From positions 36,394,001 to 36,458,000 of the forward strand of contig OX597828.1 of NCBI GenBank assembly GCA_951406725.2: 64,000 bases of DNA, read 5' to 3'. Below the pieces are notes generated by a model, which ran no database searches, was not told where the DNA came from, and saw only the letters and a list, made by a program, of their open reading frames with translations. Positions 31,751 to 53,480 of this stretch are shown one piece after another (position 1 is the stretch's first letter; each line of letters starts with the position of its first letter). Origin of the DNA: Octopus vulgaris (lineage: Eukaryota). The translations under genes were made by a program, and so were the position numbers.

Positions 31751-33599
31751 TGTATGTACGTATATATGTATTTGCACTTGTAATTTGTAACAGGTATAAA
31801 GTTATTTTACTGATATTTAGAGTAAGATATACATACATATATATTGTATATATACAGTCGTGAACACTGAAAATATATATACGCAGTTAACTTCTCTCAG
31901 CTATTATACACATAAACATGTACTTGATCTAATTATTTTTTTTTCATAGCAATACATGTGTAGGAATATTTAAGTGTTATGAAACATTCCAACATTTAGA
32001 AGTTTATAAGGATTGTATCAATAAATGAATAAGACAATGAAACCCTGTACATCGCTGGAATGAAAGTTTGTGTTAATCACAATTTTAGACACCATAACTA
32101 ATAAAATGTCCGACTTATTCGTTGTTAATAGTTTGAGTTGAGTTTTCTCAATGTTTATTCTTCTAATCAGATGAAGTATATCACTAATGTTAATTAATAT
32201 ATAGATATATAATCATAAATAGCCGTATGGTTAATATATAAATGATATATTATCGAATTGGCAGCTTTCAAACTGAAACTAAACGAGACACCATGAAGCA
32301 TTTCGTTTACTTTCATTTACGATACAATGTATTATAAGATGTGTTTTTTTTTATAATCTCCTTTCGTTAGTAATTTATACTTTGCTTAGAATAAAAAAAA
32401 AAAATGAATTGTTTGTAGTCGTAGAAATTTTTATCAAGAAATATTGATGAAATAATAATATCAGCTTATAACATTTTGTGTATTTAGGGATAATTCAATC
32501 AAACACACTTTCGTCTGCAAGAAGTTAATAGTATGTTCGGTTTATTAATTTTAGAGGTGACCATTTCGCATGATTTAAAAGTGTTTGTGATCTAATGTTC
32601 CTGAGAAGTGCAGGAAAATGACAAAATATGTCATGTTTTCGTGTCGGCTTTAACTCGGTAGCCATTTGCATTGATGCAAGTTCATATTATTTCTAGTATT
32701 TTAAGACTATTCGTTTATAAACACTGATGATTAAGTTTCATACATATTTATTCATTAGATTTTAGTGGGGTTGCTTCTTGGTATTAATATTTAAGGGATT
32801 TTAATAACATAAAGTATTCGATTGTAGATGACTGTCTCACGAACACGCACTCACACATCTGCACACACGCATCTATATTCTTCGTTATTTTCTCGCATTA
32901 AAATAACATTAAATTAGACACATATGAGAAAAGTAAATAATTTTTGATGCTTTTAACTTCAGTACTTTCATAAATCAGTCTTAACATCATAATAAACCCC
33001 GTTTCTGCATATACTCGTATATTTCCAAATATTTGAAGATATACGTTTTTGAAACGAGTTCGGCATAGATGAAATGAATTTTGGTAAATCATTTGAAATT
33101 TTTAAAGGTTTTATTGCTGTATATTTATTATTATTGTGTACAATGTATAAAAACAAATAAATAAATAAAAACTTCAATTTTATCAAACCTTCCTCCATGT
33201 TAATTTCTTTGTATTCATGTTACCAGTCCTGCAGAAATATCACTTATTCAGACAGTTATAGAAACAAAAATTAATAATTTTCTATAAAAATTACAATGAT
33301 AAGTTACAAACATTATAACCATGTACAAAGTTTTATGAAAAAAATTGACCATTTTGTGATTTTACTTAAAAACTTGTGAACATTGAGTTATGCATGTTAC
33401 AGGGCACATCAACAACATGACGTCATATAGCTTGAGGTAAAATGTTGTCGAATTTGAAAAAATTCAAATATTTTAAAATCAAACTGAAGGAATTTCTATA
33501 AATTTCATTAAAATATAATTCTGAAGTATTGATAGAACATTTATTGAGAGAAAAATAAAAACTAAAGCTGTAAAACAATTGTTCGTGAGTGAGAGAGTT

Positions 33600-35898
33600 A
33601 TCTCCCGTTGTTGGTTTTCTATCCAAGACTTGCAACTATCTCATTCTTTTCAGGCGGCAACTCGGAGCTGTGAGGACATGTATTCGATTAACTGCTGCTC
33701 GCTTTACCAGCTTTCTTCGACGGACAGTGCGGTAAGAGGCAGAAGAAAACCAAGAACAAACATATCGCCTCTTCTTTTTATTATCCATTGCAGTTGTTAT
33801 ACGAACAAGTGGCTGTCGGTTGAATTTTACACACATCCGCGATCACTTGTTGTATGAAGGCAAACGCGTGGAACTTTCGTCTGGTTTTAAATTTTAAAAT
33901 GAAGAAAGAAACGAATGGAATTGCATACAGGACACAGTCAAGAAATTTGGGTACATTACGTATGTATATCTGTACAGATCCACTCGTAAAGGTTCACAAT
34001 GTTTAATTCTTACCACTCCTAAATTTATCTATGTATTATAAACACTTAGCTAACATCTCAAACTCATTTCAACAATAAACTAGGGGCGACTCTGATGAAG
34101 AAAGAGCAAAGAAAATGGCGATAATCTTCATTATTTCATATTGTATTCTTTACTTTTTTCTCTCTCACACACACGCATCTATATATGCATGTATGCATAT
34201 ACATATATACAATCGTACACATCTGATTTAAACGTCCGATGAGACCTGATCATTTAATGTGGGTCTTGTTTTATAAAACTATCGACATTTATAATAGCTT
34301 TACTGAAACTTATTTCCAGAAATTTATCATAATTTGCATATTTTTAGATAAGTCGAAATTCCTCGTCGCCTTTTTTTTTTTTTAACATTTGGTATTTTCG
34401 GTCTAAAGATTAATAATTTATGTTTTCAGATAGAAAATTAGTTCGATTTATTCGTCCGTACTTATATTTATTGTATAACATTGAGAGAGACGAAGATTTG
34501 CAGTGATCAAGCTACCATCGTCAGAAAGGAGGAAGACATCACAAATATGGCGCTATGACCTTCATTTGTCATTGACTTCTTCCGTCGTAAGATTTCTAAT
34601 TTTAATCACTGCTTTATTATTCATAAATAGTATATACTTAATTATATAGCATTTTGCTAATTAATTTTTTTAGAGGCTTTTTAAAAAAGTTTTTAGCGTT
34701 TCTTTAATTTTTGCAATTTTTCGATAGAGAAAAAATGTAATTTTTTGTACAAAAAATATATTTTTTTTATCGATTTCATAGATATATAATTATATATAAA
34801 AAAATTAAATCATGAAGCCATACATCTCGTATATATCATTACTATATTATTTAAAGCGAAAAAGGTCCAAAATTAGTTCTAAATCTATTAATGAATTCCT
34901 TATCCTGCTGGTGGGAAAGGCATGAACATCACAGCATCACATTTTACATGCGTTATTAGTAAATGTTGGGTTATTGATAGTTCTCATGAAATTATATAAC
35001 AATACAGTATTTTCTCTAATTGTAAATAGACGTTTTAATTTAAAAATTGCGCATGTGTGTGTGTATTATGTACATATAAGCATATATTTCTGTATATCGG
35101 TGTATATATGTGTACGTATGTTTATTTGGTTAAATAGGTGTGTTTATATCTTGTTGGTATTAACTCGTTAATTATTGTATTAGTCTACTGTTATATATGT
35201 ATGAATGTGTTGGTATTTAGGCATATATAAGTATCTATTTGTAATATTTCAATGAACGGTCGTAGTTTTGAAATCGCGATCGTGGAATCGGGCGTTCGAT
35301 TCCTGAGCAAAGCGTTGTCCTTGATCAAAACTCTTTATTTCTTGTGGATCCTATCTTGGTCACTTCAGAAAGAGTATCTGTCAGGTTAACTTACAGCTGG
35401 AATGAAGGACTGGCGTCCTGTTCATGGCGAAATGGTGTTCTTAATTCGCTTGGCGCATCAGAAACTGCCCCAATGAATCCGGGTTCGAAACGATTGTGTT
35501 AGTATGGAATTGAGTGTGCTCGTAAATTCAAGTATATGTATGTATATATATATATTTCGATCCGTCGCTTCGTTCCATTTCTTATGCTCCCAGTACTGTT
35601 TTATATATATTACATATATATATATACATACATATTGATGTATTTGTGGATATAATGTGATATGTGTGCATCTGGATGTGTTCGCTTGTGAATGCTAATG
35701 TACCTGTATATATGTGCGTGTCTATGTATATGTGTATATACATGTGTGTGCCTTTGTTGCGCTCCAAAAGTTTGTAATTTAAAACTATAAATGTAGCATT
35801 TTACACCAATATACATCACTGATAACAAATAGTGATATTGAGGTAAATGCTGACAGAATAAGATTAGAAAATAGGAGTAAAACCAGTGTGTGTGTATC

Positions 35899-35944
<46 letters not shown>

Positions 35945-35972
35945 CATACATACACACACACTGGTTTTACCC

Positions 35973-36005
<33 letters not shown>

Positions 36006-36294
36006 TATACATTTATATATATCTGGTTAGATATGTGTTAATTGATCATTTCCGAGCTTTCCAGAGAATATGAAAAAATTGTTAATATTTATATTTGTGT
36101 GTGTGTATACTTGTAAGCATCTAGTCATAAAAACGATGCCAAAATAAGTCTGGTGCAGCCTCCTGCCTGGCCAGCATATTTCAAAACCGTCCAACCCATG
36201 CCAGCATGGAAGGCGAACAGTAAACAATGATGAAAGCTAGTGTTTATGTGAGTTGTGAGATACCGATGTAATTATAATTTTATATATGCGACTA

Positions 36295-36349
<55 letters not shown>

Positions 36350-36514
36350 GTGTGTGTGTGTGTATATATATATATGTGGCGTTAGGAAGGGCATCCAGCC
36401 GTAGAAACACTGCCAGATCAAACTGGGCCTGGTGCAGCCTTCTGGCTTCCCAGACCCCAGTTGAACCGTCCAACCCATGCTAGCATGGAAAGTGGACGCT
36501 AAATGATGATGATG

Positions 36515-36550
<36 letters not shown>

Positions 36551-36784
36551 GGTCCCGGGTTGATTCGGGGTTAACCACAGTAAATAAGGTACTCAATACA
36601 TAGTAGAGTAAAATTAATTTATTATATAGAAGGAGCTTCTACAGGACTAGAACTGTTTCATTCATTCTCTTGAATGAAACAGTTCTAGTCGTAAACTCCT
36701 TCTATATAATAAATATATATATATATATATATATCTAAATCAAATGTGAGGATAAAATTCTTTTCGAAAAATTTTTTATCGATG

Positions 36785-36838
<54 letters not shown>

Positions 36839-38300
36839 CCACATCTTAGGAACTGTAGTGCTTGTATTGAACTAAAATATTGCTTCTATTCATCGTTAAT
36901 AGGTTTTGATCGATTTACAACTTTGTATTTGAGTTGATTTTGTAGAATTTTATACACTGTATATATACCCTTGTTATATGCATCGGTTTCTTGTGACATT
37001 TGTATTGTGTAATGTAGAGTGTATATACACTAATTTTCTGCATTGAATTAGCTATTGTATGTATATAGCTTGTGCGAATTGCTTTTGTATAGGGAATTGT
37101 TTCTGCTGTGAAGAAACACGAGTGTGTGTGTATGTGTATATATATATATATACTTACATTGTGTATATACGCATATATACACACTTTAGTGTATGTATAT
37201 GCATATATATCCATCTTTACATATATAAATCATGTATATATAATATATGCATATATTTACATGTCTTTAATGTGAGATTATGTTATGTGATGTATTGCAT
37301 TATTACCATTTGTTGCATATGTTGTTGATATTCTATTAACCCACGTGGTTACTTGCTTTGTTTATTATTTTTTATATAAATAAAAACATTTTAATTGAAG
37401 AATATTGTCTTTTAGTTTCTTTTTACATTTTATTATTGTGTTACATGCTTTTGTATTTCAGGATTGACAATTTTGTGTTCAATTTTTTCCCCTTTTCCTG
37501 AAATATAAGGAAGTGTTGAAATTATCGGATCTAGGCTTCTAAATAAATTCCAGTTTTATCCCCACATTTAGGGTAGCAAGTAATTGTGATGACTTGTGTG
37601 TTTACACTACATACATAGTAATTGTTGATTATACGAATAATACTTCCCTTCAATACATTCCTAGTGATTTTTTTTTACCATAAACTCGTCTTCTGTTCTC
37701 CTTTACAGGCATTTGTGTATGTATACATACATTCTTATGGAATTCTGGACATGGTTTAAAACTATATTCATGTCAGTTTATAGGGGAGATGGTTTAAAAC
37801 CTATCGTTCATATGTTCACTTCCGGGTCCATACCTTTAGGGTAAACTAGCAATTATCTAGTCACCCTCTGGTTGTACTTGGGTTGCAGGGCCTTTGGTCC
37901 AAAATGGGTTTTCTGATTCCATTATCATGGCACTTTTGGTATTTTCAGACTTCAAATGTTGATGATTGCATATTTATTCATTGGGGACCATTTCATGATT
38001 CGTCTTGAATGAGTTTGTCTCCTTCAAGCAATATACACTCAGAACATAACTTTAAGGATTTATTAAATTGAGTCTCCTATTTGTTTTGCCATTGATCTAC
38101 ATCTACTCTCTGGTTGCACAACCTCAACTGACCAAAAGTACATTTAAAATATGTTGGATAAATGCTTCTGCTTGGCTCTCTGGCCAGTGGCATCAATCAA
38201 CAAGTTGGATTTTGCTTGTGTCTAATGGAGAATGTACAAGAGTTGCTTCTTGCTCCACTATTGATGGCAAGCAGCAATTATTGTCATAGTATGTGCTAGA
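33600..38300 (+). ncRNA. candidate spliced lncRNA upstream of the CHD gene (Chaserr-like position)
   Basis: Non-repetitive segments with + strand splice signals: donor GTATGT 33960; acceptor TGTTTTCAG|34430 to donor 34587 GTAAGA; acceptor TATTTCAG|37462 to donor 37580 GTAATT; strong acceptor TTCTGTTCTCCTTTACAG|37709. ATGG cluster downstream and no convincing ORF. No transcript evidence is available. Confidence 0.35.
36617..36714. repeat. about 45-bp-arm hairpin in (TA)n context
   Basis: TTATTATATAGAAGGAG..GACTAGAACTGTTTCATTCA mirrors TGAATGAAACAGTTCTAGTC..CTCCTTCTATATAATAA. Confidence 0.8.
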
Positions 38301-38399
38301 CAGCCTAGTAGTGAATTCTTCACTATACACTACGTGTGTGCATGCATGTATTATTACTATTATATATGACTGAAAGCAAATACCACGTCACAGTCATAG

Positions 38400-39490
38400 C
38401 TAGGCAGAGGGCTCCCCTGTTCAAATATACTAGCTTCTATCCCACAATTCCTTGGCTATTATCGTCGGACTGCTCGCCTGAAAGACAAGACGACTGAAAC
38501 ACACTAATACGTATACACACACTCATTACATACACATACATACATTCTAAAGATGGCCGCCATATTTCAGCTTGCATCGACACGACGCTGCCTTACGACC
38601 GACACTTGCTGCTAAAGAAATACACCAACTTGAGCCGAAAATCTTAATCAACATTACTTCCAGCATCCCTATCTAGCTGATCGACTAACTTTTAGACCCA
38701 TTCCAGGTAAAAATTGTGAAAATCTTAACATTTTATTCGCCATTGTGCAGTGAAAACTAGAGAAAAAAATGGCTATTGTATTATAACATTGAAATTCAGA
38801 GCCCATCTTTCTTTTTCTATCTTACCCTCTCTATTCCTCTTTTCCACCCTCTCTCTATCTTTATCTCTCTCTCTGTTCCTATTACTCCATGTAAAAGCTT
38901 GTTGAGTGGCTGTACGACGTGGTAGTGGTAGTAGTTACAGTAAACCGTGCGTAGGAAGGGAGAGGTAATCGTTGCGTTACTCTCATGCTTCTTCCTCCCT
39001 CCTAAGCTAGCAGCAGTGAGAGTTGGCCTCTCCTTCCTCCTCCTCCTTCAGTCAAGCCAATGCGTATGACGCCTCACTCATACTTCTACCCCCCTCCCAT
39101 GGAAAATCTATTGATAACTCATGATTTATTTATTTATTTTTAAAAAAAGCTTGGATTTAATTACAATTAATTTTTATGTTTTTGACATTCCAATTGAAGA
39201 AGAAAACAATCTTAGAAATAATTTGCTCATCCACGTTTTGAGTATTTTGAGGATCGTTTGTGGGGGGAAAGAAAAAAAAAGTGTTTGCTGCTATGTGTGC
39301 CATTGTTCCGGTCGGTAGTTGTCGGCCATGATGCCTTTGACTACTGCAGTCGTCACAGTTTTTCATGTAATAATGTCATCATCATAATAATAATAATAAT
39401 AATGATGATGATGCGATTATAGTGAACTCAACGACACCGAACGAGAGAAATATTGGAAAAAAAAATTAATCAAAAGGTCACAGAAAAGGT
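38400..39490 (+). promoter_or_regulatory. candidate promoter / non-coding first exon(s) of the CHD gene
   Basis: CpG-retaining unique sequence with YY1-like AAGATGGCCGCCATATTT at 38550, donor CCAG|GTAAAA at 38707, CCAAT near 39057 and donor AAG|GTTTGT at 39489. The first coding exon begins with an acceptor, so an upstream UTR exon must exist. Confidence 0.45.
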
Positions 39491-41668
39491 TTGTTTTGTA
39501 TTTCTAGTTATGGACTTCACCCATTTTTTAAAAATTTGTACTACTACCACTACTACTACTACCGTTATTACATTTACAGTCGTTACTACTACTACTTACT
39601 ATAGCTTTTCTTCGCACAACCCCCGGTCACACCGGTCACCATTCATTCTTGGGGAGTTTCATTCATGTATTTTAAATGTATTAATGTACACCGCTTCCTG
39701 TTTTCACCCTTTTTTATTTATTGCTGCTCCTTGAAAATGTCGTTTCGACCAGTCCAGCTTTTCTTGTTACGTGCTGTGTCTGTCTTACACGTGCATCTTC
39801 TCAGAGCTTTATTTCCTTCTGTTCAATGTTTATTATTTTTTTCTCGGCCTTACAGGTGGGTGGGAAAGACCCCTTATTTGAAATAAGTATTTAAAGATGA
39901 AAAACACGCCATAGTTTTTTGTTTTTTTTTAATTTAGCTCCACCTCAACTTCATTTCTATCATTCACTTCGTTTTAGCATGTAGGTGGAACGTTAGAGCC
40001 CCTTATATATATATTGTATTTATCCATTTTAATTAGGCTGGGTAGCTTCATTACAATTAATTAAGCTCGTATATTATCACGGGTGTTGCTTGTCTAATTA
40101 TTTACCGAGCGCTGAGCTAGTCAGATGACTTTCATTCGACCTTGGATTTACATGTCTTTTACACGTGGGACATTTTGAGTAATTTTAAATTTAATGTTTT
40201 CGGAAAGTTTTTAATTTAAAACTTCACACCCAAATGAAACCTTTTTGTAATTTAATATTTCGTTGGGAAATTTAACTTAGCCTTATACAATTTTAATTAA
40301 AATTTTTTTTTTGTCGAATGTTCGACAGTGACTTTTATTTAAAATGATTAATTAGTTTAAATTTTTAAATTATGAAGTATGTTTTTCTAATTTAAACTAT
40401 TATTTTTTATAAAATATTTTATACCTACTTTCGAGTCACCCAAAGTTTATGAAGACGTATGGTGTTCGTCTTTTATTTAGTAATGTAGTTTCAAGTGCCT
40501 TGTTTATATTTTAAGGTATTTTGTATTTCCCGGTTATTTTATCCACGTGGTTTTGTTGATGAAAACATTGCCGTACATATGCATCTGGTTTGGTAATTAT
40601 TCCGCCGAATGCAATCATAAATTATTACAATTTATTTTTAATTTTCTCTTCTTTTAAATATACAAAATAAATAGCTAAATTTATATTCATTAAATCCTGA
40701 AATGCACGAATTTTTAAATATTTATAATTGGTTTAAAAAAAAATCCTACTGGAATTTTAGCTGATTGTTAAATCTGTTTAACAACAAATATTGGCTATTA
40801 AAATAAACAGGAATTGCTTTAGCTTTATAAGGCACAAAAAGAAAATGACTTTAACTAAATGTTTTTGCTGAATAAATTTGCTATATTTTACATGAAGTTT
40901 AAAACGTAATAGCTAATATTTTATTGAATTTACTTTCATTTTGAATAGTCTTGGGCGTTTTCATATTTGTAAGATATAAGTGGAAACGAAAGTTACGAAA
41001 TTTTAAGAAAATAGTGAAATAATTCCGATATGTTTAGGTAAACCACTTAAAAGATTTGATGGTATAGATGCAATACATGATGACATGTGTTGCCAGTTTT
41101 CATGTATGCAAAAAAAAAAAAAAAAAAAACAACTTTTGTCTAGGACCCGAGTAGTGTGCATGCAATAAAGAAAATGTCGGGTATTGTAACTATTTCACTT
41201 CAGGGAAATTTGAAATTGTTTCATTTTTTTTTTTTTTCTTGTGAGAAGTAAAATTTATGTATACACTATGTTCCGAGACAATTTTTTCTTAAAGTTGAAA
41301 TTCGGGGAAATATCGGGATGGTGTGAAAACGAAAGTAGTTTTATACGCGAACCTTGAAGATCGAATACTAGAAGCACAATTTCATTTTACTGGTTCTGTA
41401 ATCTATTGATATTTTTACCAGACACGATCAAAGACTGTACGCTGTACGTGTGATTTCTATAAAATTATTAATCACATCACTGACGTAATTTTTTAAATAC
41501 TTTTATGGCCTAGGCAATGCAAACGCTTAATCTATTTGTATGCTTTTAGTTACTCATATAAAGTAATAGAGCAATTACAGTTTCAAAAGTGATACAAAAA
41601 TTATGTTCGACTTCAAAAAGAACTTGCAACATTTAATCATGCTGCCACGTATCTTAATTGGATTAGCG

Positions 41669-41754
41669 GGCGGAAGTAAAGAATACGCACACCACCCGTT
41701 TTCGGCGTAACCCTAACCCTAAACACCGCGTGTGCGTATTCTTTACCTTCGTCC
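41669..41754. mobile_element. miniature palindromic element with a TAACCC core
   Basis: GTAAAGAATACGCACAC / GTGTGCGTATTCTTTAC perfect 17-bp inverted repeat around TAACCCTAACCCTAA. Confidence 0.7.
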
Positions 41755-43468
41755 AAAGTTATTTCACAGTGGTGGTGGCATCGCAGATCGAATTTCCAAG
41801 ACCGACCGTATGAAAAGTTACACAGAAAACGTTGAAAAGAAACACAAAAAATGTTTTACAATGAAAATAAACTCTGCCTTAACACGTAAAAGCTGTTTGT
41901 TGACAGTGAAACTCGAGGATCGGCCATATGTGTTTCAGAAGATAAGACAAGCTAAAGCTTTCTGTGCTTTTAGTACGGAAATGCACATAGCATGCAAAAA
42001 GAAAAAGAATGAACACTCCTTTATTTGCATAAGTAATAATAATAAACAAGCCCAATTGTAATAGCAACTCTAAAGTGAACTACTGGCTATAATCGTGTAA
42101 TTAACGGAAGTCTTATGAAACGTGTATAGCTTGGATACTTAATGACGAATTTTGCATTTGTACAAAAGTACCAAATTTTAATGTTTACAATAGCTGATAT
42201 ATTGAAAATAGGTGTCTTTCGGAATTGTTTTGTACAACACATTTATCAACTCTGGAAATAGTACTTCCATAATGATGTGAAATTGTACGGTCTGTAGTAA
42301 TTCAGGTTTTCGCTATGATGATAACGACCTCCAACTTCCGGTTTGAGTCATGGAATAAAATAACACTGAATCATAAGAGTTAAAAAGCAACAAAAACAAA
42401 TAGTTTATGCAATGGAAGGAAGTCCAGATGTTTTCTGTGACTGCTAGGTCACATTGATTTTTACGTCAAACCAGGAAACGTTGCCGATTTATTTGAAGGA
42501 GTTAGCTTCGTCAAATGTGTGTTTTCTTAATAACCAGGAAATGCTCAAATAGGTTTAACCGATTTTACATAATGTGTGCTGAAACGTGATTTGACTTTTG
42601 AAATCACCTCATTTGTATGGAAAGAAATAAAATTCTCAACATGTAGAGAGCCTGTAATTTGGTAGTCAGGTTTGTTTTCAGTGAGACCTAACTTTAGATG
42701 ACGGAAAAACCTTGCAAGACACGATGTAATCTATTGGCCTGTCTTAATAGATAAGGACACAAATACTGGGTATTTGTACAGATACAGAAAGTAGCAAGTT
42801 GTACTGTACTACTTAATCCATTGGAAGTTGTCTTCAAATAATGTAATTAGTTGCATTTCTTGTTTGCCTTAGATTCGTCAACCTTTTCGTCGTTAAGCAT
42901 GTGTCCATACGTCTACAACGTATGACACATGCAATTTCCGTCACGGAGCCTTTTTTTTTTTTATATTTGATAAATCAGAAACCGGTTATAACTTTCTGTG
43001 TATTTGGAATTGTTACTGATGTTACCTTTCTTAAAGGTACATGTCATCGACGTTTAAGGTCCTCTTTTTGCACACTTGCGTGGGTCATACGGATTTTCTT
43101 GAAGCAGAGTTTATATGGCTGGATGCCCATGTTGTCACCAACTCTTCCCTTTTTCCAAACAGGGTAATATTTCCCCCATTGCTAGACATGTTTCCACGGA
43201 ATATTGGAAATAGATGCCATTCAGTTACAACTATCATATGTCAAGACAAGGAGACACACACACACAGGACGGGTTTCTTTTAGTTTCCGTCTATGAAATC
43301 TACTCACAAAGCTTTGGTTGTATTGGAGCCAGAGCAGAAAACATTTGCCCATAGTGCTGTGGAGGGGGACTGAACTTGAGACCACAAATTTAGGATGCAA
43401 GCTTCTCAACCACAGCCATATCTCAAATGTAAACCATTCAACCAGTTTTTAACAATGTTCAAGCATAG

Positions 43469-43770
43469 GTGCAGGAGTGGCTGTGTGGTAAGCAGCTTGC
43501 TTACCAACCACATGGTTCCAGGTTCAGTCCCACTGTGTGGCACCTTGGACACGTGTCTTCTACAACCGCCTCGGGTCGACCAAAACCTTGGTGGATGGAA
43601 ACTGAAAGAAGCCTGTCGTATGTATATATGTGTGTGCGTTTGTTTCCCCCACCCCAACATTGCTTGACAACCGATGCTGGTTTGGCAAAAAGAGACCGAT
43701 AGAATAAGTTCTAGGGTCGATTTCCTCGACTAAAGGCAGTGCTGCAGTCAAGTGACTGAAACAAAAGAGT
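43469..43770 (+). mobile_element. SINE family C, internally deleted
   Basis: GCAGGAGTGGCTGTGTGGTAAG head and CACCTTGGACACGTGTCTT segment. Confidence 0.8.
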
Positions 43771-45106
43771 ATAGCTGTGAGGTTAAGAACATGTCTATCC
43801 GAACACTTAGTTCTGAATTCAATCCCAACACACAATTCCTTGTGCAAGGGTCTTCATTTTCAGGTGGATAATAGAACCCTGTAGTTGTTATGCATGCCAG
43901 TGCTTATCTTTGCACCAATCGAAGAACTTTTGTTATGTTGTGTTCCTTTGCTCTGAAGCTTAGCTGTTGCATAAACAGAGATCAATAAAATAAGTGCTAA
44001 AGTGAAATGGGGTGATTCATATGAGAAAGTGAAGCTCCAGCAAGACTGCGGTCCAATGACTGATACCAGTACAAGGAAAAAATGTACGTGACCAAGCAAC
44101 GTTTCAAAATAGGATACGTGGGTGTCGTGTTCAAATATTACACGGAACTGCCAGTCATGTAGTAGAAGCAGAGTAGAATTGTGGCTACTGGTCAAGTTCT
44201 AATTATTCTATAAGTTTTAATTGATAGTCTCAAGGGTCCTTTGAAGTACTCAGAAAACATTTTATAGGAAAACATTAGTCCAAAGTCAATTTTCAGAGCA
44301 ACGTGATTATTTTTAGCTTCTCTCACATAATTGTGTCTTGCAGCTAGTCATATCACCTTGGAAAAGTTGATTTACTGGTTATACTGTTGCCAAATAATCT
44401 ATAATAGTATCATCACCAGATTTAACATTTTAAAACACTTAAAATGTGGCTGGTGTTTAGTGACATACCAATTCATTGATTCTACCTTAAACACAGAATG
44501 TTCTATGTGATCTAAAAGCACTTTAAATAGGCCATTGTTTTTGAATTCTAGAGCTTAACTTTACTTGGAATTATCGGGGGTGGGTGGGTATGCTCTCAAC
44601 AGTAATAGTAAATTACTATAAATATTCAAAATAGTTTTAGTTAATTGTTTTATAGACTGCTGACAGAATTCAGATGATTGTAGAGTAAGAATTTCATTAT
44701 GAATGCATGAATTCTTTTGCATTATCCCTTTTCATGAGGTCTAGCTTTTGGGAGTGTTTGTCTGCAGGCAAGGCTGCTTGGTAAGAAGTTTGTTTTCCAA
44801 CCACATGGTTCCAGGTTCAATCCCATTGTGTGTCACCTTGGACGAGTGTCTTCCACTATAGCCCCAGGCAGGCCAAAGCCTTGTGTGTGGACTGGGTAGA
44901 TGGAAACTGAAAGAAGACTGTCTCTCTTTCATAATTCATATCCTTTTCATGTTGACATTGATTGGACAGTTTGATAAGAAACTGCTAAGTGGCAGGGCAA
45001 TGTCAAACTCTAATGTTCTCTTTGGCTTGGTTACTATGGCTGGATGCCCATCCTAATGGCATATATATATTCTAAACAGTGCCATATATATATACACACA
45101 CTAAAC

Positions 45107-45152
45107 AAAACTGTCTGATGAACAAGGACATGAAATTCTGAGTAACAGTTTT
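45107..45152 (+). ncRNA. minimal type I hammerhead motif with decayed stem II, in a Penelope-like fragment
   Basis: AAAACTGT-CTGATGA-ACAAGGACAT-GAAA-TTCTGA-GTA/ACAGTTTT: 8-bp perfect stem I and both core boxes. A more degenerate inverted copy is at 54158-54204. Confidence 0.6.
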
Positions 45153-45881
45153 TGTCATATTTTTCCTGCTTTATAATAAAACATTACTCTACTTCTGGTA
45201 TTCGAATACTATTTTTTCCACCTTGTTTCACATTTATGTGCTTACTCTGGTGTATATATATATACACACACACATTTATATATATATATATATATATAGT
45301 GTGTGTGTGTAGTTTGTCCTACACTACCATTGGTTTGTTTACATCCCCTGTAACTTAGCTGTTTGGCTAAGAGTTTGATAGAATAAATACTGGGGTTGAT
45401 TCATTTGACTAAATAAAAACATACCTTTCAAGGTGGTGTCCTCAGTAAGGCTGTAGTACAATGACTGCAATAAGTAAAAGATAAAAGCTGACATCACACT
45501 TCTTCAGTCGGTGTGCACTTGTCAGAGCCCTACTGTTGAGTGGGATTTCGTGCTTTACTGTCCCACTAGCCCATGGTATGTTGGCACAAATTGTCAGTTG
45601 ACCCTAGACTCGAGTGGTACTAGGTCTAACATGAAACGGTGAAAGGCACAGTTAATCTTGGGTGTGATTTGTATTTAGGACAAATACTGCAAGGCATTTT
45701 GTTTGCTGTCCTAGATTTGACTGCAGTAAAAGAATACAACTGAGGAGTAGGAAGAAATAGTCCTTGTTGCAAGAATATGTATAGTATAATTGATAGTGGT
45801 AATGGATAACCAATTGTGGAGAGACAGATTGTATATTCCAGGCATGAACAACTTTTTCGGGAAGTAGGCCACAAAAAACCT

Positions 45882-46068
45882 ATTTCTTTACTACCCACAA
45901 GGGGCTAAACAGAGAGAGGACAGACAAACGGATTAAGTTGATTATATCGACCCCAAAAGGATGAAAGGCAAAGTTGACCTCGGCGGAATTTGAACTCAGA
46001 ACGTAGCGGCAGACGAAATACCGCTAAGCATTTCGCCCAACGTGCTAACGTTTCTGCCAGCTCGCCGC
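45882..46068 (-). mobile_element. SINE family B
   Basis: Homologous to 12925-13137, flanked by the near-direct repeat CACA(A/T)AAAACCT. Confidence 0.85.
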
Positions 46069-47703
46069 CACATAAAACCTGTCCCATCTTCAGGTAGGTC
46101 ACTACTAAGAAAACTGAAGGTAATTTTTCATTAAGCGTGCTGTTCAGAAAGTACCATAAGCTGCAGGTTGCCCATAAGTGGTTTATACCTTAGCACTGCA
46201 TTATGTCTGTTTCTTAGACAACTCTTAAAAGCTGAGGCTGATCAGAATATGTTTAGCTTCTACATGCTTGTATATACTGGTCAAGTCTGCTATTCACCAT
46301 CTTTCTAAGTGTCTCATCTGTGAGCTTCATCTTTTCCTGATCTGTTCTGATTACCATATCTTCTTCCAACACCTGCTGTGGTGGTGTAGGTAAAACGTTT
46401 GCTTCCCAACCACATGGTTCCAGTTTCACTCCCACTTGTGGCACCTTGGGCAGGTTTCTTCTACTGTAGCCTTGAGCTGACCAGAGCCTTGTTAATGGAT
46501 TTAGTAGATGGAGACTGAAAGAAGCCCGTGTGTGTTTGTGTCTCCTTGGCATAGCGTGACAGTTGTAAATGTCACCATCATACAAGCGATGAAATTCATT
46601 TCCAATATTTGTGGACACTTGTCTAACCATGGGGAAATATTACCTTGCTTGGAAACAGGTGAAGCTTGGGGACAGGATGAGCATCTTTCTCAGTAAATTC
46701 CATCTGACCCATGCAAACATGAAAATGTGGATGTTAAAAGAGTGATGGTGATAAAATGTATAAAAAATAATGGGTGTATAGTGAAATGCAAAAACAAAAA
46801 GGCATATTAGTTAGAAGAAAGGTTAGCTGGATGGGTCAGGAGAGTTTGCAGCAATTAAAGCTCACAAAAGGTAAATGAGCAGAGATAACGATGTTATACA
46901 GATCCAGTGCTATGTAGTAAATCCAATAAACAGATGATTAAGGTGATCAGTAAATTTGCTTAAAATTAATTCTGAAGTTGATGTACCATTCCACTCAATT
47001 TTGGATGCACATTACAAAGTTCTGTTGCAGGTCTTGGACACACCTTAAATCTTTCTGATAAAATGGTGGATAAGTTTACTTCACCTAATTAGTTTTATTT
47101 AAAACTAAGAAAATACTGTACTTGATGTCCTATAAGATGCACTAAAACCTTTCCTTGAATAATATGCTGTTGAAATTGGGGTGTGTCTAATATGCCTGTG
47201 CATTTTATGCTATAAAATTTGACAACTGTAATGCTTAGGAAAATCTCTGCTGTTACCATTTTGTATTATTGTATGTGTGTGTGTGTATGTTACTGTCTCC
47301 TTGCCTGGACTTAATTTAATAGTTGTAAATAAATGTCATTGTCTTGCAAACAGTGTCATTCGTTTCCAATCTTCTGTGAAAACATGTCTGGTCATGGGGG
47401 AAATATTACCTTACTTGGAAACAGGTGAGGGTTGACAAGGGGTAGGGCATCCAGCTGTAGGAAATCTGCCTCAGCAAATTCTGTTCAACCTTAGAAAAAT
47501 AGATGTTAAAATGCTGCTGCTGATGATATATAACTTAGACATAAAACTGCATACAGAAGACTAAATTCTCAAGTTGCTATGTAAATTGCTCTGAGTACAT
47601 TGAATTATCTGCATTGAAACAATTTTTTTTTTTTACTCACTGACTGCTCTTGCAGATCTTGTTTAACTAGAAGATTCTAGATGGATAAAAAAAAAATATC
47701 AGG

Positions 47704-48063
47704 TGCAGGAGTGGCTGTGTGGTAAGTAGCTTGCTAACCAACCACATGGTTCCGGGTTCAGTCCCACTGCGTGGCATCTTGGGCAAGTGTCTTCTGCTAT
47801 AGCCTCGAGCTGACCAATGCCTTGTGAGTGGATTTGGTAGACAGAAACTGAAAGAAGCCTGTCGTATATATGTATATATATATATGTATGTGTGTTTGTC
47901 CCCCTAGCATTGCTTGACAACCGATGCTGGTGTGTTTACGTCCCCGTCACTTAGTGGTTCGGCAAAAGAGACCGATAGAATAAGTACCGGGGTCGATTTG
48001 CTCGACTAAAGGCGGTGCTCCAGCATGGCCACAGTCAAATGACTGAAACAAGTAAAAGAGTAA
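47704..48063 (+). mobile_element. SINE family C
   Basis: Full head-to-tail copy ending GACTGAAACAAGTAAAAGAGTAAA. Confidence 0.88.
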
Positions 48064-48393
48064 AGCAAGAAAATAGTAACCACCAACTTGTGTTAATGTT
48101 TATTGTCTTCTGGTTTGATCTAATCCTGTTTGTAGTTGGATATTTTCTCTTACATAACACAAACATATTCCTTTCTACTCTAGGCACAGGGCCTGTAATT
48201 TTGGGGGAGAGGGCCAGTCGATTAGATCGACCCCAATATGTAACTGGTACTTAATTTATTGACCCCGAAAGGATGAAAGGCAAAGTTGACCTCAGTGGGA
48301 TTTGAACTCAACGTAAAGACAGACGAAATACTGCGAAGCATTTCGCCTGCCATACTAATGTTTATGCCATCTTGCCACCTTTATGTATATAAA

Positions 48394-48756
48394 CTAGCAG
48401 TATCGCCGGCGTTGCTCGGGTTTGTCAGGAAATAACTATATAAGCATTTTTAGAGAGTTATAGCCAAAAAATAGGAAAAAAAACGATGGTAAATTTTTTT
48501 TTAAATTGTTGACTCATCGTAGACATTTTTAGAGAGTTACTTCCCTTATATAATAGCGAAAAATGCATTAAAATGGAAAAAAGTGATGGTAAATTATTTA
48601 AAAAATCGCAGGCTCATGCTAATACCCAGAAGGGCTCGATATGAATCACGACTATAAGATACCCGCTTTTGGTTACACTGCACCGCAAAATGTGGGAGTA
48701 GTTAGGAATCTAAATCGTAGGAGACAGACACACAACTTGACTTTTATATATAAAGA
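48394..48756 (-). mobile_element. non-autonomous Helitron
   Basis: On the minus strand A|TCTTTATATATAAAAG ... CCCGAGCAACGCCGGCGATACTGCTAG|T, with canonical TC/CTAG ends at an AT site. Homologous to 29167-29565. Confidence 0.88.
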
Positions 48757-49886
48757 TAAATTGTCAAAGAAATTTTCACTTTTGTCTCTTTTTCCGTTAC
48801 ATCTTGATAATTTTCTCTAACAGCTATATTCATTATGATATTTGTAAAATGCACTTAGTTTCAATGAATTTTGAAAAATAGAAGCTATTGTTTGGAACAT
48901 AAATCAACATGAAATTTTGATGGAAGTTTTTAATTTCGATCACTTTGTAACAAGAAATGTGTATCACAGGACCAAGGGTAGTGTGGGTGGTTTGATATCA
49001 AAAGGGTTAATATATATATTATTTAGAAATGAAAAAATAACCTAAAATAGTATAATGATTATACAACTTGGAAACCCCTTACAGTTAGTTGAACTATGAA
49101 GCTTACATTTGGAATACTGAGGGCATTTTTTAAGAGAAGAGAAACATTTGTTCAATTCGAGGCCAGCATTTCTTTGCAGTTTGAGAAAATGTTTATATAG
49201 ATGTGTATATATATATATATATATATACTTCCTGCTGCTAAAACCGCAGCTGTTAAGCGGTGGTAAGCAAGCAAGCAAGCACATTTGTGCTTATGCTCAC
49301 AGTGTCAATAATTGAATTCCTGCTTATGTGTCAATGCTTCATTGTCTTAGACTTACAACCATTATGTTTTTGTGTGACTAGTTACTTGTTTTATTTATCT
49401 CAGTGGGTTTGGACACAAGGTTAAGTAGAATATTAAATAATGTGCTACAAAGATATTTGTAAGGTGCTTAGCTCCAGTTTGTCCTTGAGTGAGCAGACTA
49501 ATTATCAAAGGTATCCCAGCTGGAATCGTACAATCTTTCATTCATACTTAGTGTATCTTTGACTACATCATCCATATATCCTTCCTTGTGAAGAAAGTGA
49601 GATGAGATTTGAGAATGGTTTGGTTGCTAAATCTAACAGAGGTTCATTCCCTTTCTAGCTTGTAAATTTGTGGGTAGATACTTATTGGCAGACTCCCATT
49701 GCAAATCATTGTCTTAGTATCAAAATGGGCTAACTAGTCGTTCCAGCATATTGAGATAATTAAGGTATCAAAAATGAGTTATATGTAATATTCTTCCTTC
49801 CATTGCATACTGGAATTCTCTCAATAACCTAGAATAGGTCTCATATGCAACATTAGCGTACCAAAAGTCTTTTGTTTATGAATAGG

Positions 49887-50505
49887 TGCAGGAGTGGCTG
49901 TGTGGTAAGTAGCTTGTTTACCAACCACATGGTTCCGGGTTATCCCACTGCGTGGCACCTTGGACAAGTGTCTTCTACTATAGCCTTGGGTCGGCCAAAG
50001 CCTTGTGGGTGGATTTGGTGGATGGAAACTGAAAGAAGCCGTCGTATATATGTATATATATATGTGTGTGTGTGTTTGTGCCTCCAACATCACTTGACAA
50101 CCGATGCTAGTGTGTTTATGTCCCTGTAACTTAGTGGTTCGGCAAAAGAGACCAATAGAATAAATAAAGGTGGCAAGCTAGCAGAAATGTTAGCACACCG
50201 GGTGAAATGCTTAGCGGTATTTCGTCTGCCGCTACGTTCTGAGTTCAAATTCCGCCGAGGTCGACTTTACCTTTCATCCTTTTGGGGTCGATTAAATAAG
50301 GACCAGTTACGCACTGGGGTCAATGTAATCGACTTAATCCGTTTGTCTGTCCTTGTTTGTCCCCTCTGTGTTTAGCCCCTTGTGGGCAGTAAAGAAATAA
50401 GAATAAATATTAGGTTTACAAGGAATAAGTCCTGGGGGCGATTTGTTTGACTAAAGGCGGTGCTCTAGCATGGCCACAGTGAAATGACTAAAACAAGTAA
50501 AAATA
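49887..50505 (+). mobile_element. family C SINE interrupted by a nested family B SINE (about 50167-50399)
   Basis: The family C sequence stops at AGAATAAATA and resumes after a second AGAATAAATA, with a full family B copy between them. Confidence 0.85.
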
Positions 50506-51692
50506 GAATATTTTATAAACCTTGTACATTTTGTAAAATAACTAAAATCAGTTAACCTGATTTATCACTGAATCAATTTTGAAACCAGAATCAAATAAGG
50601 CTAATTGGATGGACTTGGACATGTTGGGTCCTGTCAAGCTATCCAGCCCATGACAATGTGGAAGATGGAGATTAAAATATTGTGATGATGATGTTGATAT
50701 ATGTGTGTGTGTCTGTACCCTCACAAGGCTTTAGTTGGCCCAGGGCAATGGTAGATGATACCTGCTCATGTGTCACTCATTGGGACTGAATGTTAAACCG
50801 TGTGGTTGGGAAATGAACTTCTTAACTACCTAGTCATACCTGCACCTATAGTATCAGGAAATACTAACTAAAACAAAATAGTTATTGTACAGGAAGGGTT
50901 AAACAAAATAGGCTTGTATCAATGAGTAATGTCTGTGTAAACATTTGTAATTTGTTTCAAAGAGAATCTGTGGCCGTAACTTCTTAGGTGCTAGGATTAC
51001 AGACTGAAAGGTCAAGTGGTTACATTTTGCTAGAGTCATAGTGTTGCAACCTTTTCTTTTTATGCATTACATATTAATCTTTCTGCTGCATTCAATTGAG
51101 CAGAAAATTCATGCAATTCTCATTTCACAGACAAGTGGATTATGGTTGCCAAGAGATATGCCGTGGTGTAAAAATTTTTGTGAAAATATCCAAATTTGCA
51201 AGTACAAAATCTACAAATCTCAAGTATCATTACAAATATTGTCTTTATAAAAACAGGTACAAACCTTGATGTATGATTCAATGAATGGTATTCTAAAAGG
51301 TCAGCATTTGTCGAAGTGTTAAAGGTCAAATTAGTAAACCCTTTAACACTCTCATACCAGCATAGAAAAACTCAATCAGCTGCAATTGAATAAGATGACA
51401 ACTCTTTAGACCAGGAAAGAAGCCAGTTTTTTTATTATTTCTGTGCATTTAGAACATCTGTGTGTTTATTCTTTGAAATTTATGTAAATAGTGAGGTCTC
51501 TAGGTTTCAGATGATAGTGTGTAGTAAGTAGTAATGCCATAACACAGTGGTCCCCAGATTTTTGCACCACAGACAGGTTTCATGCAAGGCACTTTTTCCA
51601 TGGACTAGGGGATTAGACGCATACAAAATGAAAAATATATATATATATATACAAAGTACGTAATATATAATTTAATTTTTAAAAAAAGTAAA

Positions 51693-52010
51693 GACCCCTT
51701 TTAGTCATGAATGACTATGGGATTGCAACTGGAATGTTTCACTCCAAGGCACAAATCCAGGCAAGGTTGCCTTTTATAGAAGACCAGCAGTCGTCCATGC
51801 ATACCAGCCTCTCATCATGCCAACAATGTTATCCAAGGCAAAGGCTGATATAGTTTGGTACCGGTGACATTGCAACTCATTTCTACAGCTGAGTGAACTG
51901 AGTAACATAAAGTAAAGTGTCTTACTCAAGAACACGACACACACTCCAGTCTAGGAATTGAACTCACTACCTCATGAGTGTGAGCCCGACACTCTAACCA
52001 CTGAGCCATG
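51693..52010 (-). mobile_element. SINE family A, diverged copy
   Basis: Homologous to 1-321 in the same orientation. Confidence 0.8.
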
Positions 52011-52565
52011 TGGATTTGTATTAGTTATGTAATTTAATTATTGTATATATGATACAAATGTAATTGTGACATTGTATATTATATACTTTATTTCTACAAT
52101 TACACACCTCAAAATTATGAAATGGTATGAAATGATTCATGGTCCAGTGGCCTCTATCCTAATGGATCTTGTCATGAACATTTGTAATGATTTGCTCCTT
52201 GGATATTTCTTTCAGAACAACACAATCATCTTTCTAAAGGATACCATTTTCCAGAGTTATTCTATGTTTAAAATGCTTGCAGGATTTTACATCTTTGAAG
52301 CAGCATCTCCAGGCATTCTTTTACATTCTATGAATGATTTTGCTCAGCATCAGATCACATAATATTTTTGACAATAAAAGAATGAGACTTCGATATAGGA
52401 GAAGTAGAGGATTATTTTATATGTTATAATTTAGAAGAAACAGTGAAAGGTTGTCATTGTAGTATTCCTGCATTCACAACATCTACACACATACTCATTC
52501 AAACATGTATATTTACATACACACACATACAAATATGTGTGTACGTACTCATACATACACATATC

Positions 52566-52636
<71 letters not shown>

Positions 52637-52881
52637 GTATGTATGTATGCAACCTCATCCTCATATACACATAGTTACTTACATGCAAACATGTAACACC
52701 ATCATCATCGATTAATGTCTGTTTTCCATGCTGGCATGGGTTGGATGGTTTGACCAAGGTCTGGAGAGCCAGAGGCTGCACCAGGCTCAAATATGGTCTG
52801 GCAGAGTTTCGACAGCTAGATGCCCTTCCTAACGTCATATATATTTAGTTATTTATACATGTAAGTGTGTGTGTGTGCGTG

Positions 52882-52917
<36 letters not shown>

Positions 52918-53298
52918 GATATTTGCACTCCCTCACACACATATATGTATATAATGACAACCTTTTACTGTTTGTTCTAAATTATAACGTGTGTGTGTAT
53001 GTATATATAAATATATATATACCTATACACGGGGCTGGCTTGTGGTACTGGCAACTTCGGCAGTCGCCCAGGACACCATATGCTTTTTAGTCTATATTTT
53101 CAGTTTTTCTCCTTATGAAAGTTTTAAAAAATTATACTTGTAAGGACGCCGATGTTCAGCTTGCCTAGGGCACCAGCAACCCTAGGGTTGGCTCTCTCTC
53201 CCTCTCTCTCTCTCTATATATATATATAATATACACTATTAAGCTTAAAACACTTTTCCTTTTCTTATTGCTTCAGAAACTAATCAATTGATGGACAT

Positions 53299-53480
53299 AT
53301 GAACTCCTTCAAATCAGGCTTAATAACTACTTCAGCACTTCCAGCCTCTGACTATGAAAGAGATGCTGGTTACCAGCAGTACATTCCACCCCAGCACAAC
53401 AACATTAAAGTAGAAATGGGCTCCAATAAGTCAGAAGAAGAAGAAAGCAGTGCTTCGGATTCAGGCTCTGGAAATTCCAG
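53299..53480 (+). CDS. CHD1: CHD1/CHD2-family chromodomain helicase, first coding exon (exon starts at 53277)
   Basis: Acceptor TTTTCTTATTGCTTCAG|53277, in-frame TAA before ATG 53299, MNSFK...NKSEEEESSASDSGSGNS, donor AG|GTAAGA (phase 2). The phase matches the next exon. Confidence 0.8.

Follow-up and report, generated by a model that had tools for sequence, protein, structure and literature searches.

The 5' region of the octopus CHD1/2 gene

The window, a stretch of 64,000 nucleotides of Octopus vulgaris DNA, has CHD1/2 (CHD1 below) as its downstream gene, to which a CHD1-like protein (P0001) aligns exon by exon from 53299. The protein has the Pfam chromo, SNF2, helicase and PF13907 domains; PF13907 is matched once in genome G000, and CHD1/2 of octopus is a single gene. 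At least two CHD1 first exons, 1a and 1b, are supported by RNA contigs (Table 1). The left end of exon 1a is the start of a contig from sequencing run X5 and not a mapped TSS, and that of exon 1b is taken from a piece from run X19. An acceptor at 39856 (10.5 bits) was rejected as the start of CHD1 exon 2, as contigs of runs X1 and X19 read through it; strong acceptors in this region thus need not be used. We also dismissed a metagenome contig (L025) matching a 22-nt pattern of exon 1a as a chance match, because there was no similarity beyond this pattern.

Table 1. Features upstream of and at the 5' end of CHD1 (positions in the window)
Feature	Position	Strand	Evidence or remark
CpG-rich promoter-like zone, single-copy	33401..35600	.	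base composition; CpG o/e 1.27
Palindrome TGACGTCA	33418..33425	.	sole copy in masked 264 kb; shuffle P=0.029
YY1-like AAAATGGCG	34112..34120	+	ATG starts 38-codon ORF
Candidate upstream exon	34430..34586	+	good acceptor, weak donor; not above chance
YY1/TISU-like AATATGGCG	34544..34558	+	ATG starts 3-codon ORF (MAL*)
Acceptor	37462	+	8.7 bits
RNA-covered unspliced stretch 5' of exon 1a	37485..38398	. (probably +)	X1, X7 and X19 contigs
Proposed intron	37580..37708	+	unspliced in contigs: X1, X19 over both ends; X7 over acceptor
Five ATGG, two being RRATGG (37787, 37902)	37737..37930	+	motif count
CHD1 exon 1a, non-coding	38399..38706	+	donor 38707 to 53277 in 4/4 runs
Back-to-back YY1-like motifs AAGATGGCCGCCATATT	38550..38566	. 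(both)	+ strand ATG starts 20-codon uORF
CHD1 exon 1b, alternative first exon	39203..39488	+	donor 39489 to 53277 in 2/4 runs
CHD1 exon 2	53277..53480	+	start codon 53299, MNSFKSG...

The main CpG-rich zones in the surrounding 264 kb are two, one at 32-36 kb and the other at the 5' end of CHD1, with no sequence in common beyond short AT-rich matches. The tandem promoters of the first-pass annotation find their counterpart in a second promoter-like zone upstream of the CHD promoter, at ~33.4-35.6 kb as judged by CpG content and YY1-like sites, and from these features of the sequence we infer that 33401-35600 is an upstream promoter. Its matches elsewhere are short and of low complexity only. 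It carries a palindrome, TGACGTCA, which we take to be the CRE consensus, and the YY1-like sites noted earlier at 34112 and 34544 are present and above chance (two on the plus strand versus 0.096 in shuffles, P=0.003). The 34544 element has AATATGGC in common with the TISU-like 5' element of CHASERR (bioRxiv 2025.05.28.656657). YY1 sites in human promoters lie just 3' of the start site and are strand-biased, according to bioRxiv 2024.05.28.596138.

The first-pass annotation had proposed that a spliced plus-strand lncRNA resembling Chaserr lies directly upstream of CHD1. The splice dinucleotides of its exon chain exist (GT at 33960, 34587 and 37580; AG before 34430, 37462 and 37709), and long ORFs are indeed absent, since in 33401-35600 the longest ATG ORF has 61 aa, and in 37462-38706 it has 51 aa. 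With matrices trained on CHD1's own 37 donors and 38 acceptors (one training acceptor being off by one base), the acceptors scored well (9.4 bits at 34430, 11.1 at 37709; for 37462 see Table 1). Two donors are poor: that at 33960 reaches 4.4 bits, which puts it in the 8th percentile of real sites with 3.9 decoys of equal score per kb, and that at 34587 has 1.6 bits and 11.9 such decoys per kb. The 96 kb of CHD1 introns contain 30 pseudo-exons as good as 34430-34586 and 5 as good as 37462-37579. An exon scan from -100 to 38.5 kb put no candidate coding exon with more than 12 points in 28-38.5 kb among its top 45 per strand, and none of the 93 Rfam matches at E<=1 in 28-43 kb, nearly all on TA repeats, reached the gathering score.

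RNA cover and sequence composition upstream of exon 1a

Assembled contigs of four public sequencing runs (X1, X5, X7 and X19) were compared with 37261-40260; TA arrays occupy 35.9-36.8 kb. Among the 24 runs listed, 20 contain part of 37420-38720, four were compared in detail, and none of those with sequence from this stretch is on record as RNA. The comparison drew on 40 of 134 substitutions, 12 of 39 gaps and 18 of 19 loose ends, with 11 pieces outside the listing; from the order of the entries, the X7 substitutions in 37593-37968 were assumed to be the full set, and those specific to X19 fall outside the entries listed. The contigs are unstranded and cannot reveal RNA ends, and minor forms can drop out of them.

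In three of the four runs, representing three organisms and three studies, unspliced cover leads to the donor at 38706 and then to the CHD1 coding exon at 53277. X7 has one contig over 37593-38706 (1514 nt), X19 one over 37534-38706, and X1 two overlapping ones (37485-37986 and 37958-38706); the X7 and X19 contigs and the second of X1 continue with the letters of 53277 onward. Unspliced cover upstream of the CHD1 first exon thereby extends over ~1.1-1.2 kb, with no internal joint listed between its start and 38706 in these three runs, though one contig may span two RNAs that overlap, and then does not represent a single transcript. Contigs of X5 begin at exon 1a, and 37261-37484 has no continuous cover in the four runs (one 35-nt partial piece, X19); such gaps in cover are given no weight here. 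The contig starts in X1, X19 and X7 lie 23, 72 and 131 nt inside the 37462 acceptor, a weak hint of splicing there; no junction at 37462 was seen in the contigs of the four runs, nor a loose end there among the 18 of 19 shown. Unspliced RNA is present in the X1 and X19 libraries, since both also have contigs in intron 1, over its initial 1.2-1.4 kb.

RNA directly upstream of the CHD1 first exon, as predicted, is thus present in three organisms. The predicted splicing at 37580 and 37709 was not seen: no joint occurs in the four runs, X1 and X19 cross 37580, and X1, X7 and X19 cross 37709. Nor do the contigs end before the CHD promoter; instead, they run on into the CHD1 first exon in all three organisms. 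Since the upstream RNA is continuous with this exon, the result is near the outcome that the first-pass annotation had itself named as counting against a lncRNA, namely exons serving as CHD 5' UTR. Two poly(A)-type signals overlap at 38059..38067 (ATTAAA at 38062 on the plus and AATAAA at 38059 on the minus strand), and contigs cross both. No poly(A) loose end is among the 18 of 19 seen, and no A-to-I difference able to reveal the strand is among the substitutions listed.

Base composition offers evidence on the strand. The stretch 37462-38398 has 8 CpG versus 29.9 expected (CpG o/e 0.27) and an AT skew of -0.156 (z -3.8), compared with -0.057 in the CHD1 body and +0.041 in the body of a minus-strand PDZ gene. 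A CpG o/e of 0.27 or less occurs in 48% of 336 CHD1-intron windows versus 5.5% of 109 windows in 4-33 kb, and also outside known genes, in 21% of 228 windows from -68 to +4 kb; a skew of -0.156 or less occurs in 11% of CHD1-intron windows versus 0 of 122 windows in the minus-strand body. Methylation in octopus is described for gene bodies and hardly for promoters in PMC9476566. This CpG-poor, T-rich stretch between two CpG-rich zones looks like a plus-strand gene body in its composition, and because of the T>A skew and CpG loss the RNA of 37.5-38.4 kb is probably plus-strand. The same-strand evidence is mixed: skew and CpG favour the plus strand, but the minus strand has a YY1-like site and poly(A) signals, with AATAAA at 38059, 37973, 37429 and 37361 (plus-strand AATAAA: 37379 and 37542), and the contigs do not tell strands apart.

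The candidate last exon of the proposed lncRNA has ATGG at 37737, 37751, 37789, 37904, 37927, 38225 and 38264, a direct repeat ATGGTTTAAAAC at 37751 and 37789 and ATTAAA at 38062, all as annotated; the repeat copies hold two minimal uORFs, ATG-GTT-TAA. Five ATGG in 37709-37958 compare with 2.19 expected (P=0.046 in 3000 shuffles, for a window picked post hoc), the excess fading when the window is extended to 38082 (5 versus 3.0, P=0.17) or 38300 (7 versus 4.48, P=0.13). In favour of the annotation, at least five ATGG occur in only 22 of 3672 overlapping 250-nt plus-strand windows of the 264-kb region. RRATGG occurs twice versus 0.29 expected (P=0.03), yet at least two are found in 189 of the 3672 windows; likewise, the 12-mer repeat is seen in 0.3% of shuffles, but in 29 of 581 real repeat-free 250-nt windows. 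Neither AAGATG nor AAATGGA is present in the reference sequence of this exon.

Conservation of the cluster in a relative was not borne out: X7, the one relative compared, diverges at the local rate, and no constraint was detected. Over 260 nt of the candidate exon it differs by 25 substitutions (9.6%), compared with 45 over 738 nt downstream (6.1%), and it keeps four of five ATGG, the chance expectation (P=0.46). Both RRATGG are kept, a change at 37786 turning one into AAGATGG, and the 37709 acceptor tract has four substitutions in 23 nt plus deletions. We regard the ATGG cluster as weak, marginal evidence. The upstream stretch as a whole is no more conserved than nearby intron pieces, with substitution rates of 7.3% versus 4.7% in X7 and 2.1% versus 1.8-4.8% in X19.

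Origin of the upstream RNA

Our tentatively preferred explanation, which we hold at somewhat below an even chance, is that a second, upstream promoter drives a 5'-extended, uORF-laden CHD1 RNA that likely damps CHD1 output as LUTIs do. Transcription would begin at ~34.1-34.55 kb, within the CpG-rich zone that carries the YY1-like sites, and a short first exon would be spliced to the 37462 acceptor. The long leader would then run unspliced from 37462 through the exon 1a donor at 38706 to 53277. This long form may be poorly translated or removed by nonsense-mediated decay, and polymerase crossing the proximal promoter may interfere with it as in LUTIs, with an outcome like that of Chaserr. Single contigs of X7 and X19 link 37.5-38.7 kb to coding exon 2, although a contig is not a molecule. 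The predicted 1244-nt long leader has 24 ATGs versus 2 in the 330-nt short leader; all 24 close before the main start or are out of frame with it, so that by its sequence the long leader would have the uORFs that mark extended LUTI leaders. Against a 5'-extended transcript stand the weak 34587 donor, the unseen 37462 junction and the ordinary conservation of the upstream stretch, as well as the unspliced RNA in X1 and X19, the CpG-poor windows outside genes and the minus-strand YY1-like site and poly(A) signals.

The same tandem-promoter evidence would serve a separate plus-strand Chaserr-like lncRNA that starts in 33.4-35.6 kb, ends in a single large exon running from 37462 to a poly(A) site near the ATTAAA at 38062, reads through into exon 1 at a low level and would repress CHD1 in cis. 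Such an RNA would suit the two RRATGG kept in X7, one as AAGATGG, and the AATATGGC and 3-codon ORF at 34544, which recall the TISU-like 5' ends of CHASERR and Cyrano; mouse Pol II crosses the Chaserr-Chd2 gap too, and RefSeq once drew both genes overlapping. We nevertheless consider it unlikely, as contigs from three organisms have no splice at 37580/37709 and no break at 38062-38400, where the only plus-strand signal in 37709-38400 is the variant ATTAAA. The missing AAGATG and AAATGGA, the altered 37709 tract and the divergence of the candidate exon in X7, with ATGG retained at the chance rate, also speak against it. A divergent antisense RNA from a bidirectional CHD1 promoter, starting on the minus strand at ~38570-38600, overlapping exon 1a with its own 5' end and ending at a minus-strand AATAAA, seems rather improbable to us. 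An unspliced RNA of about 1 kb would suit this class, the YY1-like motifs at 38550-38566 lie back to back on both strands, and four AATAAA lie on the minus strand; between the ends of the contigs and the 37429 signal there are 50-160 nt, and the two X1 contigs meet beside the one at 37973. Such signals number 8 in 1.4 kb of intron 1, however, and so follow base composition, and the T>A skew and strong CpG loss reach right up to the promoter. Because CpG is retained in the first 4 kb of CHD1 itself (o/e 1.01), a short divergent RNA is not expected to be methylated; a poly(A) loose end is likewise missing among the 18 of 19 seen.

It is doubtful, finally, that the RNA is a plain long first exon from a weak CHD1 start at ~37.4-37.5 kb, or promoter-proximal RNA that is still unprocessed, and plays no part in regulation; the 32-36 kb zone would then belong elsewhere, for example to the minus-strand PDZ gene. 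The 5' end of that gene is unplaced, with its first coding exon 68 kb to the left of the window; at least two first exons are already known for CHD1, and the lack of a 37462 junction and of extra conservation would fit, as would TATA-like hexamers at 37373-37375. TATA-like matches are common, however (235 in 264 kb), and the DNA around a start at 37.4-37.5 kb would be poor in CpG, which is not the case for the first exons that RNA supports. Both YY1-like sites of the upstream zone face CHD1, and the cover recurs in three organisms.

Relation to Chaserr and other upstream transcription

Promoter-divergent antisense transcripts are known as PROMPTs or uaRNAs. The octopus RNA resembles them in being unspliced, ~1 kb long and next to a promoter that carries a motif on each strand, but skew and CpG loss indicate plus-strand elongation from further upstream. 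With LUTIs, such as those of NDC80 in yeast and MDM2 in human (bioRxiv 2023.04.27.538572), it would share a distal promoter and a 5'-extended RNA with downstream coding sequence and 24 ATGs. In octopus, unlike in LUTIs, both the distal start and continuity within single molecules are predicted, and low translation and proximal repression are putative.

Vertebrate Chaserr is made up of five exons and is polyadenylated ~2.2 kb upstream of the Chd2 start (PMC6841665, PMC7798263). As with Chaserr, a CHD1/2-family gene in octopus has non-coding transcription immediately 5' of it, likely on the same strand and from tandem promoters; RRAUGG hexamers occur, as does a TISU-like 5' element. Unlike Chaserr, the octopus contigs show no splicing in the last 1.1-1.2 kb and lead straight into exon 1, no spliced multi-exon form with a motif-bearing last exon was found in the four runs over 37261-40260, and conserved AAGAUG/RRAUGG motifs were not found, AAGAUG being absent from the reference and no constraint on the ATGG cluster being detected in one relative. 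In a Chaserr-Chd2 fusion making up ~1% of Chaserr, a Chaserr exon is spliced directly to exon 2 of Chd2, so that exon 1 is left out (bioRxiv 2025.05.28.656657). Both there and in octopus an upstream unit is joined to the full CHD coding sequence via a uORF-containing leader, but the octopus contigs use exon 1a's own donor at 38706. Thus, of the proposed Chaserr-like lncRNA, the gene identity, the upstream RNA and the second promoter-like zone stand, while in the contigs splicing of 37580-37708 was not seen and no separate end is visible, and constraint on ATGG was not detected in the one relative. Reports of invertebrate Chaserr homologs, which the annotation had mentioned, were not found, and no literature was found that treats octopus, lncRNA and CHD1 together.

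CHD2 is dosage-sensitive in people, and in the literature examined Chaserr is described only in vertebrates. Should the octopus RNA be just a divergent transcript or a spare first exon, it would count among the ordinary features of promoters. It is improbable, but of wider consequence, that a mollusc CHD1/2 with a tandem upstream unit (TISU/YY1-like opening, RRAUGG) has a Chaserr counterpart, mostly as a fused read-through; dosage control by upstream transcription would then be bilaterian-ancestral or have arisen twice. Upstream transcription into octopus CHD1/2 would make the age of this cis feedback, ancient versus convergent, testable, and would also test whether cis feedback on a remodeller needs a separate RNA.

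Gene structure and RNA upstream of CHD1

The downstream gene had been correctly recognised as CHD1/2. The O. vulgaris protein P0001 (label: CHD1-like) matches 53299–53478 at 100%, an exact-match walk that included neighbouring stretches placed the whole protein (1952 residues) on 38 coding exons that span 53299–140554, and the single PF13907 match in the 2.8-Gb O. vulgaris assembly lies within this gene. A 244-aa O. vulgaris protein on a different contig (P0009; label SANT-helical linker) clusters with CHD1 and is perhaps a partial duplicate. Leftward, the closest coding exon identified belongs to a PDZ-domain gene divergent from CHD1, and the DNA from that exon to about +4 kb is CpG-poor.

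Features of the CHD1 5' region and its surroundings (window-relative; negative, left of the window)
Feature	Position	Strand	Remarks
PDZ-domain gene, first coding exon (L021)	-68235 to -68951	minus	labelled PTPN13-like in Octopus sinensis
ORF resembling mariner-type transposase (L016)	-19580 to -19275	minus	by eye
LINE-like element	5526–8227	+	endonuclease-like and reverse-transcriptase-like ORFs, 399 and 538 codons (by eye)
Two-codon ORF ATG GTT TAA	37751–37759, 37789–37797		opens the 12-mer repeat; both kept in X7, one via a synonymous change
CHD1 exon 1a	38399–38706
YY1-like motifs, back to back	38550–38566	both	within exon 1a; + ATG begins a 20-codon uORF
Unspliced contigs, first 1.2–1.4 kb of intron 1	38839–40107		X1, X19; stop at 39930 and 40107
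CHD1 exon 1b, alternative, non-coding	39203–39488		spliced to 53277 in X1 and X19
Third CHD1 exon, 718 nt	55883–56600		very Asp/Glu-rich; long acidic N-terminal tract

We compared contigs from 4 of 24 listed public sequencing runs (unstranded, from four studies; X1 and X5 from organism A, X7 from B and X19 from E) with 37261–40260; such contigs lose minor forms, give neither strand nor ends and can fuse overlapping RNAs. The contig match ended at 38706 in all four runs and the letters then continued as 53277 onward, which proves the splice, and hence the RNA origin, and defines exon 1a. A second donor, at 39488, was likewise continued with 53277 letters in two of the four; the leader of this form has 10 ATGs. 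The unspliced intron 1 pieces also carried by X1 and X19 possibly reflect premature termination or exon 1b promoter RNA.

Leftward cover ran without a joint in three of the four runs: a single contig reached 37593 in X7 (1514 nt) and 37534 in X19, and in X1 a pair of contigs that share 37958–37986 reached 37485. Upstream RNA is real in three organisms. No joint was listed anywhere in the contigs of the four runs over 37261–40260, and no loose end lay at 37462, 37579 or 37709 among 18 of the 19 loose-end rows. The first-pass annotation had proposed a spliced, + strand, Chaserr-like lncRNA (33600–38300) with a separate last exon ending before CHD1. Given the cover without joints, its intron 37580–37708 is unspliced in the dominant form and its last exon is continuous with exon 1a.

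Sequence signals of the upstream stretch

All motifs named for this lncRNA are present where they had been placed, and long ORFs are indeed lacking (maxima of 61 codons in 33401–35600 and 51 in 37462–38706). Scored with matrices built from CHD1's own sites (1 of 38 training acceptors off by one base), the three proposed acceptors fell inside the real-site range and donor 37580 was ordinary (7.9 bits), but donors 33960 and 34587 were weak. Since 96 kb of CHD1 introns contain 30 and 5 pseudo-exons that score as well as the two internal exons, the sequence alone does not lift the exon chain above chance.

In a scan of 264 kb (2.2-kb windows, CpG o/e of 1.1 or more), CpG-rich windows formed two main runs, with starts at 31.0–34.2 kb and 39.2–40.4 kb, the second being CHD1's 5' end; two further windows, near -91.6 kb, were marginal. 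The upstream zone, a single-copy sequence, carries the sole TGACGTCA of the 264-kb region and contains the previously noted pair of + strand YY1-like sites near 34112 and 34544, which is above chance (P=0.003). YY1, CRE, TATA and PROMPT serve here as names of motifs and classes. Between the two runs, 37462–38398 has 8 CpG against 29.9 expected and a + strand T>A skew, a sign that the CHD1 body shares and the PDZ gene body reverses. Octopus methylation lies on gene bodies and is scant at promoters (PMC9476566); therefore, on statistical grounds, 37462–38398 looks like the methylated tail of a unit that is transcribed on the + strand from 3–4 kb further upstream. The unmethylated lead-in of CHD1 itself measures about 4 kb. 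Equally CpG-poor windows make up 5.5% at 4–33 kb and 21% at -68 to +4 kb. In human promoters the YY1 motif is placed shortly after the start site and shows a strand bias (bioRxiv 2024.05.28.596138). A second promoter upstream of CHD1 is plausible.

The ATGG cluster is marginal. Five ATGG occur in only 22 of 3672 overlapping windows, but P was 0.046 for the best 250-nt stretch and 0.13–0.17 in longer windows. Chaserr motifs are given as AAGAUG and AAAUGGA with the common core ARAUGR (PMC7798263, section 7) or as RRAUGG clusters (bioRxiv 2025.05.28.656657); the candidate exon of the reference contains neither AAGATG nor AAATGGA, and two RRATGG (P=0.03; two are present in about 5% of windows). 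Conservation was judged, at low power, from X7, the one relative with visible substitutions, which differs at 81 positions over 37593–38706. Substitutions numbered 25 in the 260 nt of the exon start (37709–37968) versus 45 in the 738 nt downstream (Fisher P=0.066, towards a less conserved exon start). One of five ATGG was lost, retention of four being expected by chance (P=0.46), both 12-mer repeat copies were altered, and the 37709 acceptor tract had four substitutions in 23 nt plus deletions. Counting for the earlier reading, both RRATGG were retained, one turned into AAGATGG, and both ATG-GTN-TAA mini-ORFs were intact. The upstream stretch was not more conserved than neighbouring intron pieces.

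Readings of the upstream RNA

We tentatively propose, at somewhat less than even chances, that the upstream promoter gives rise to a CHD1 transcript with an extended 5' end. Its first exon, a short one at about 34.1–34.6 kb, would be spliced to acceptor 37462, which would explain why contigs fade 23–131 nt inside that acceptor, and the RNA would continue through exon 1a into the coding exons. This RNA is likely poorly translated, because its leader has 24 upstream ATGs versus 2 in the short form. Its elongation over the proximal promoter would probably reduce the short mRNA, as described for LUTIs (bioRxiv 2023.04.27.538572). In this proposal, what was seen directly is limited to cover, junctions, ATG counts and composition.

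A separate Chaserr-like lncRNA bridged to CHD1 by read-through has a precedent in mouse, where Pol II is described as crossing the corresponding gap, and is unlikely here. Divergent antisense RNA, to which a minus-strand YY1-like site at 38558 and minus-strand AATAAA at 37429, 37973 and 38059 would point, is about equally unlikely, and slightly less likely again is an ordinary long first exon, or else unprocessed RNA.

Chaserr has a spliced last exon, whereas the octopus contigs lack such a splice, and a conserved AAGAUG cluster, which the candidate exon does not share; for these two reasons we do not class the octopus RNA as Chaserr. Of the lncRNA claim, the upstream RNA itself, seen in three organisms, and the plausibility of a second promoter remain, but not a spliced, motif-rich lncRNA. 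The invertebrate Chaserr homologs mentioned earlier were not found in the portions of the non-subscription literature covered; a vertebrate-only claim could be affected by the Chaserr species lists that supplement PMC7798263 and PMC6841665. The boldest reading, in which protostomes have a Chaserr counterpart that operates in a fused state, is improbable. The octopus upstream RNA may act in the manner of Chaserr or of a LUTI.
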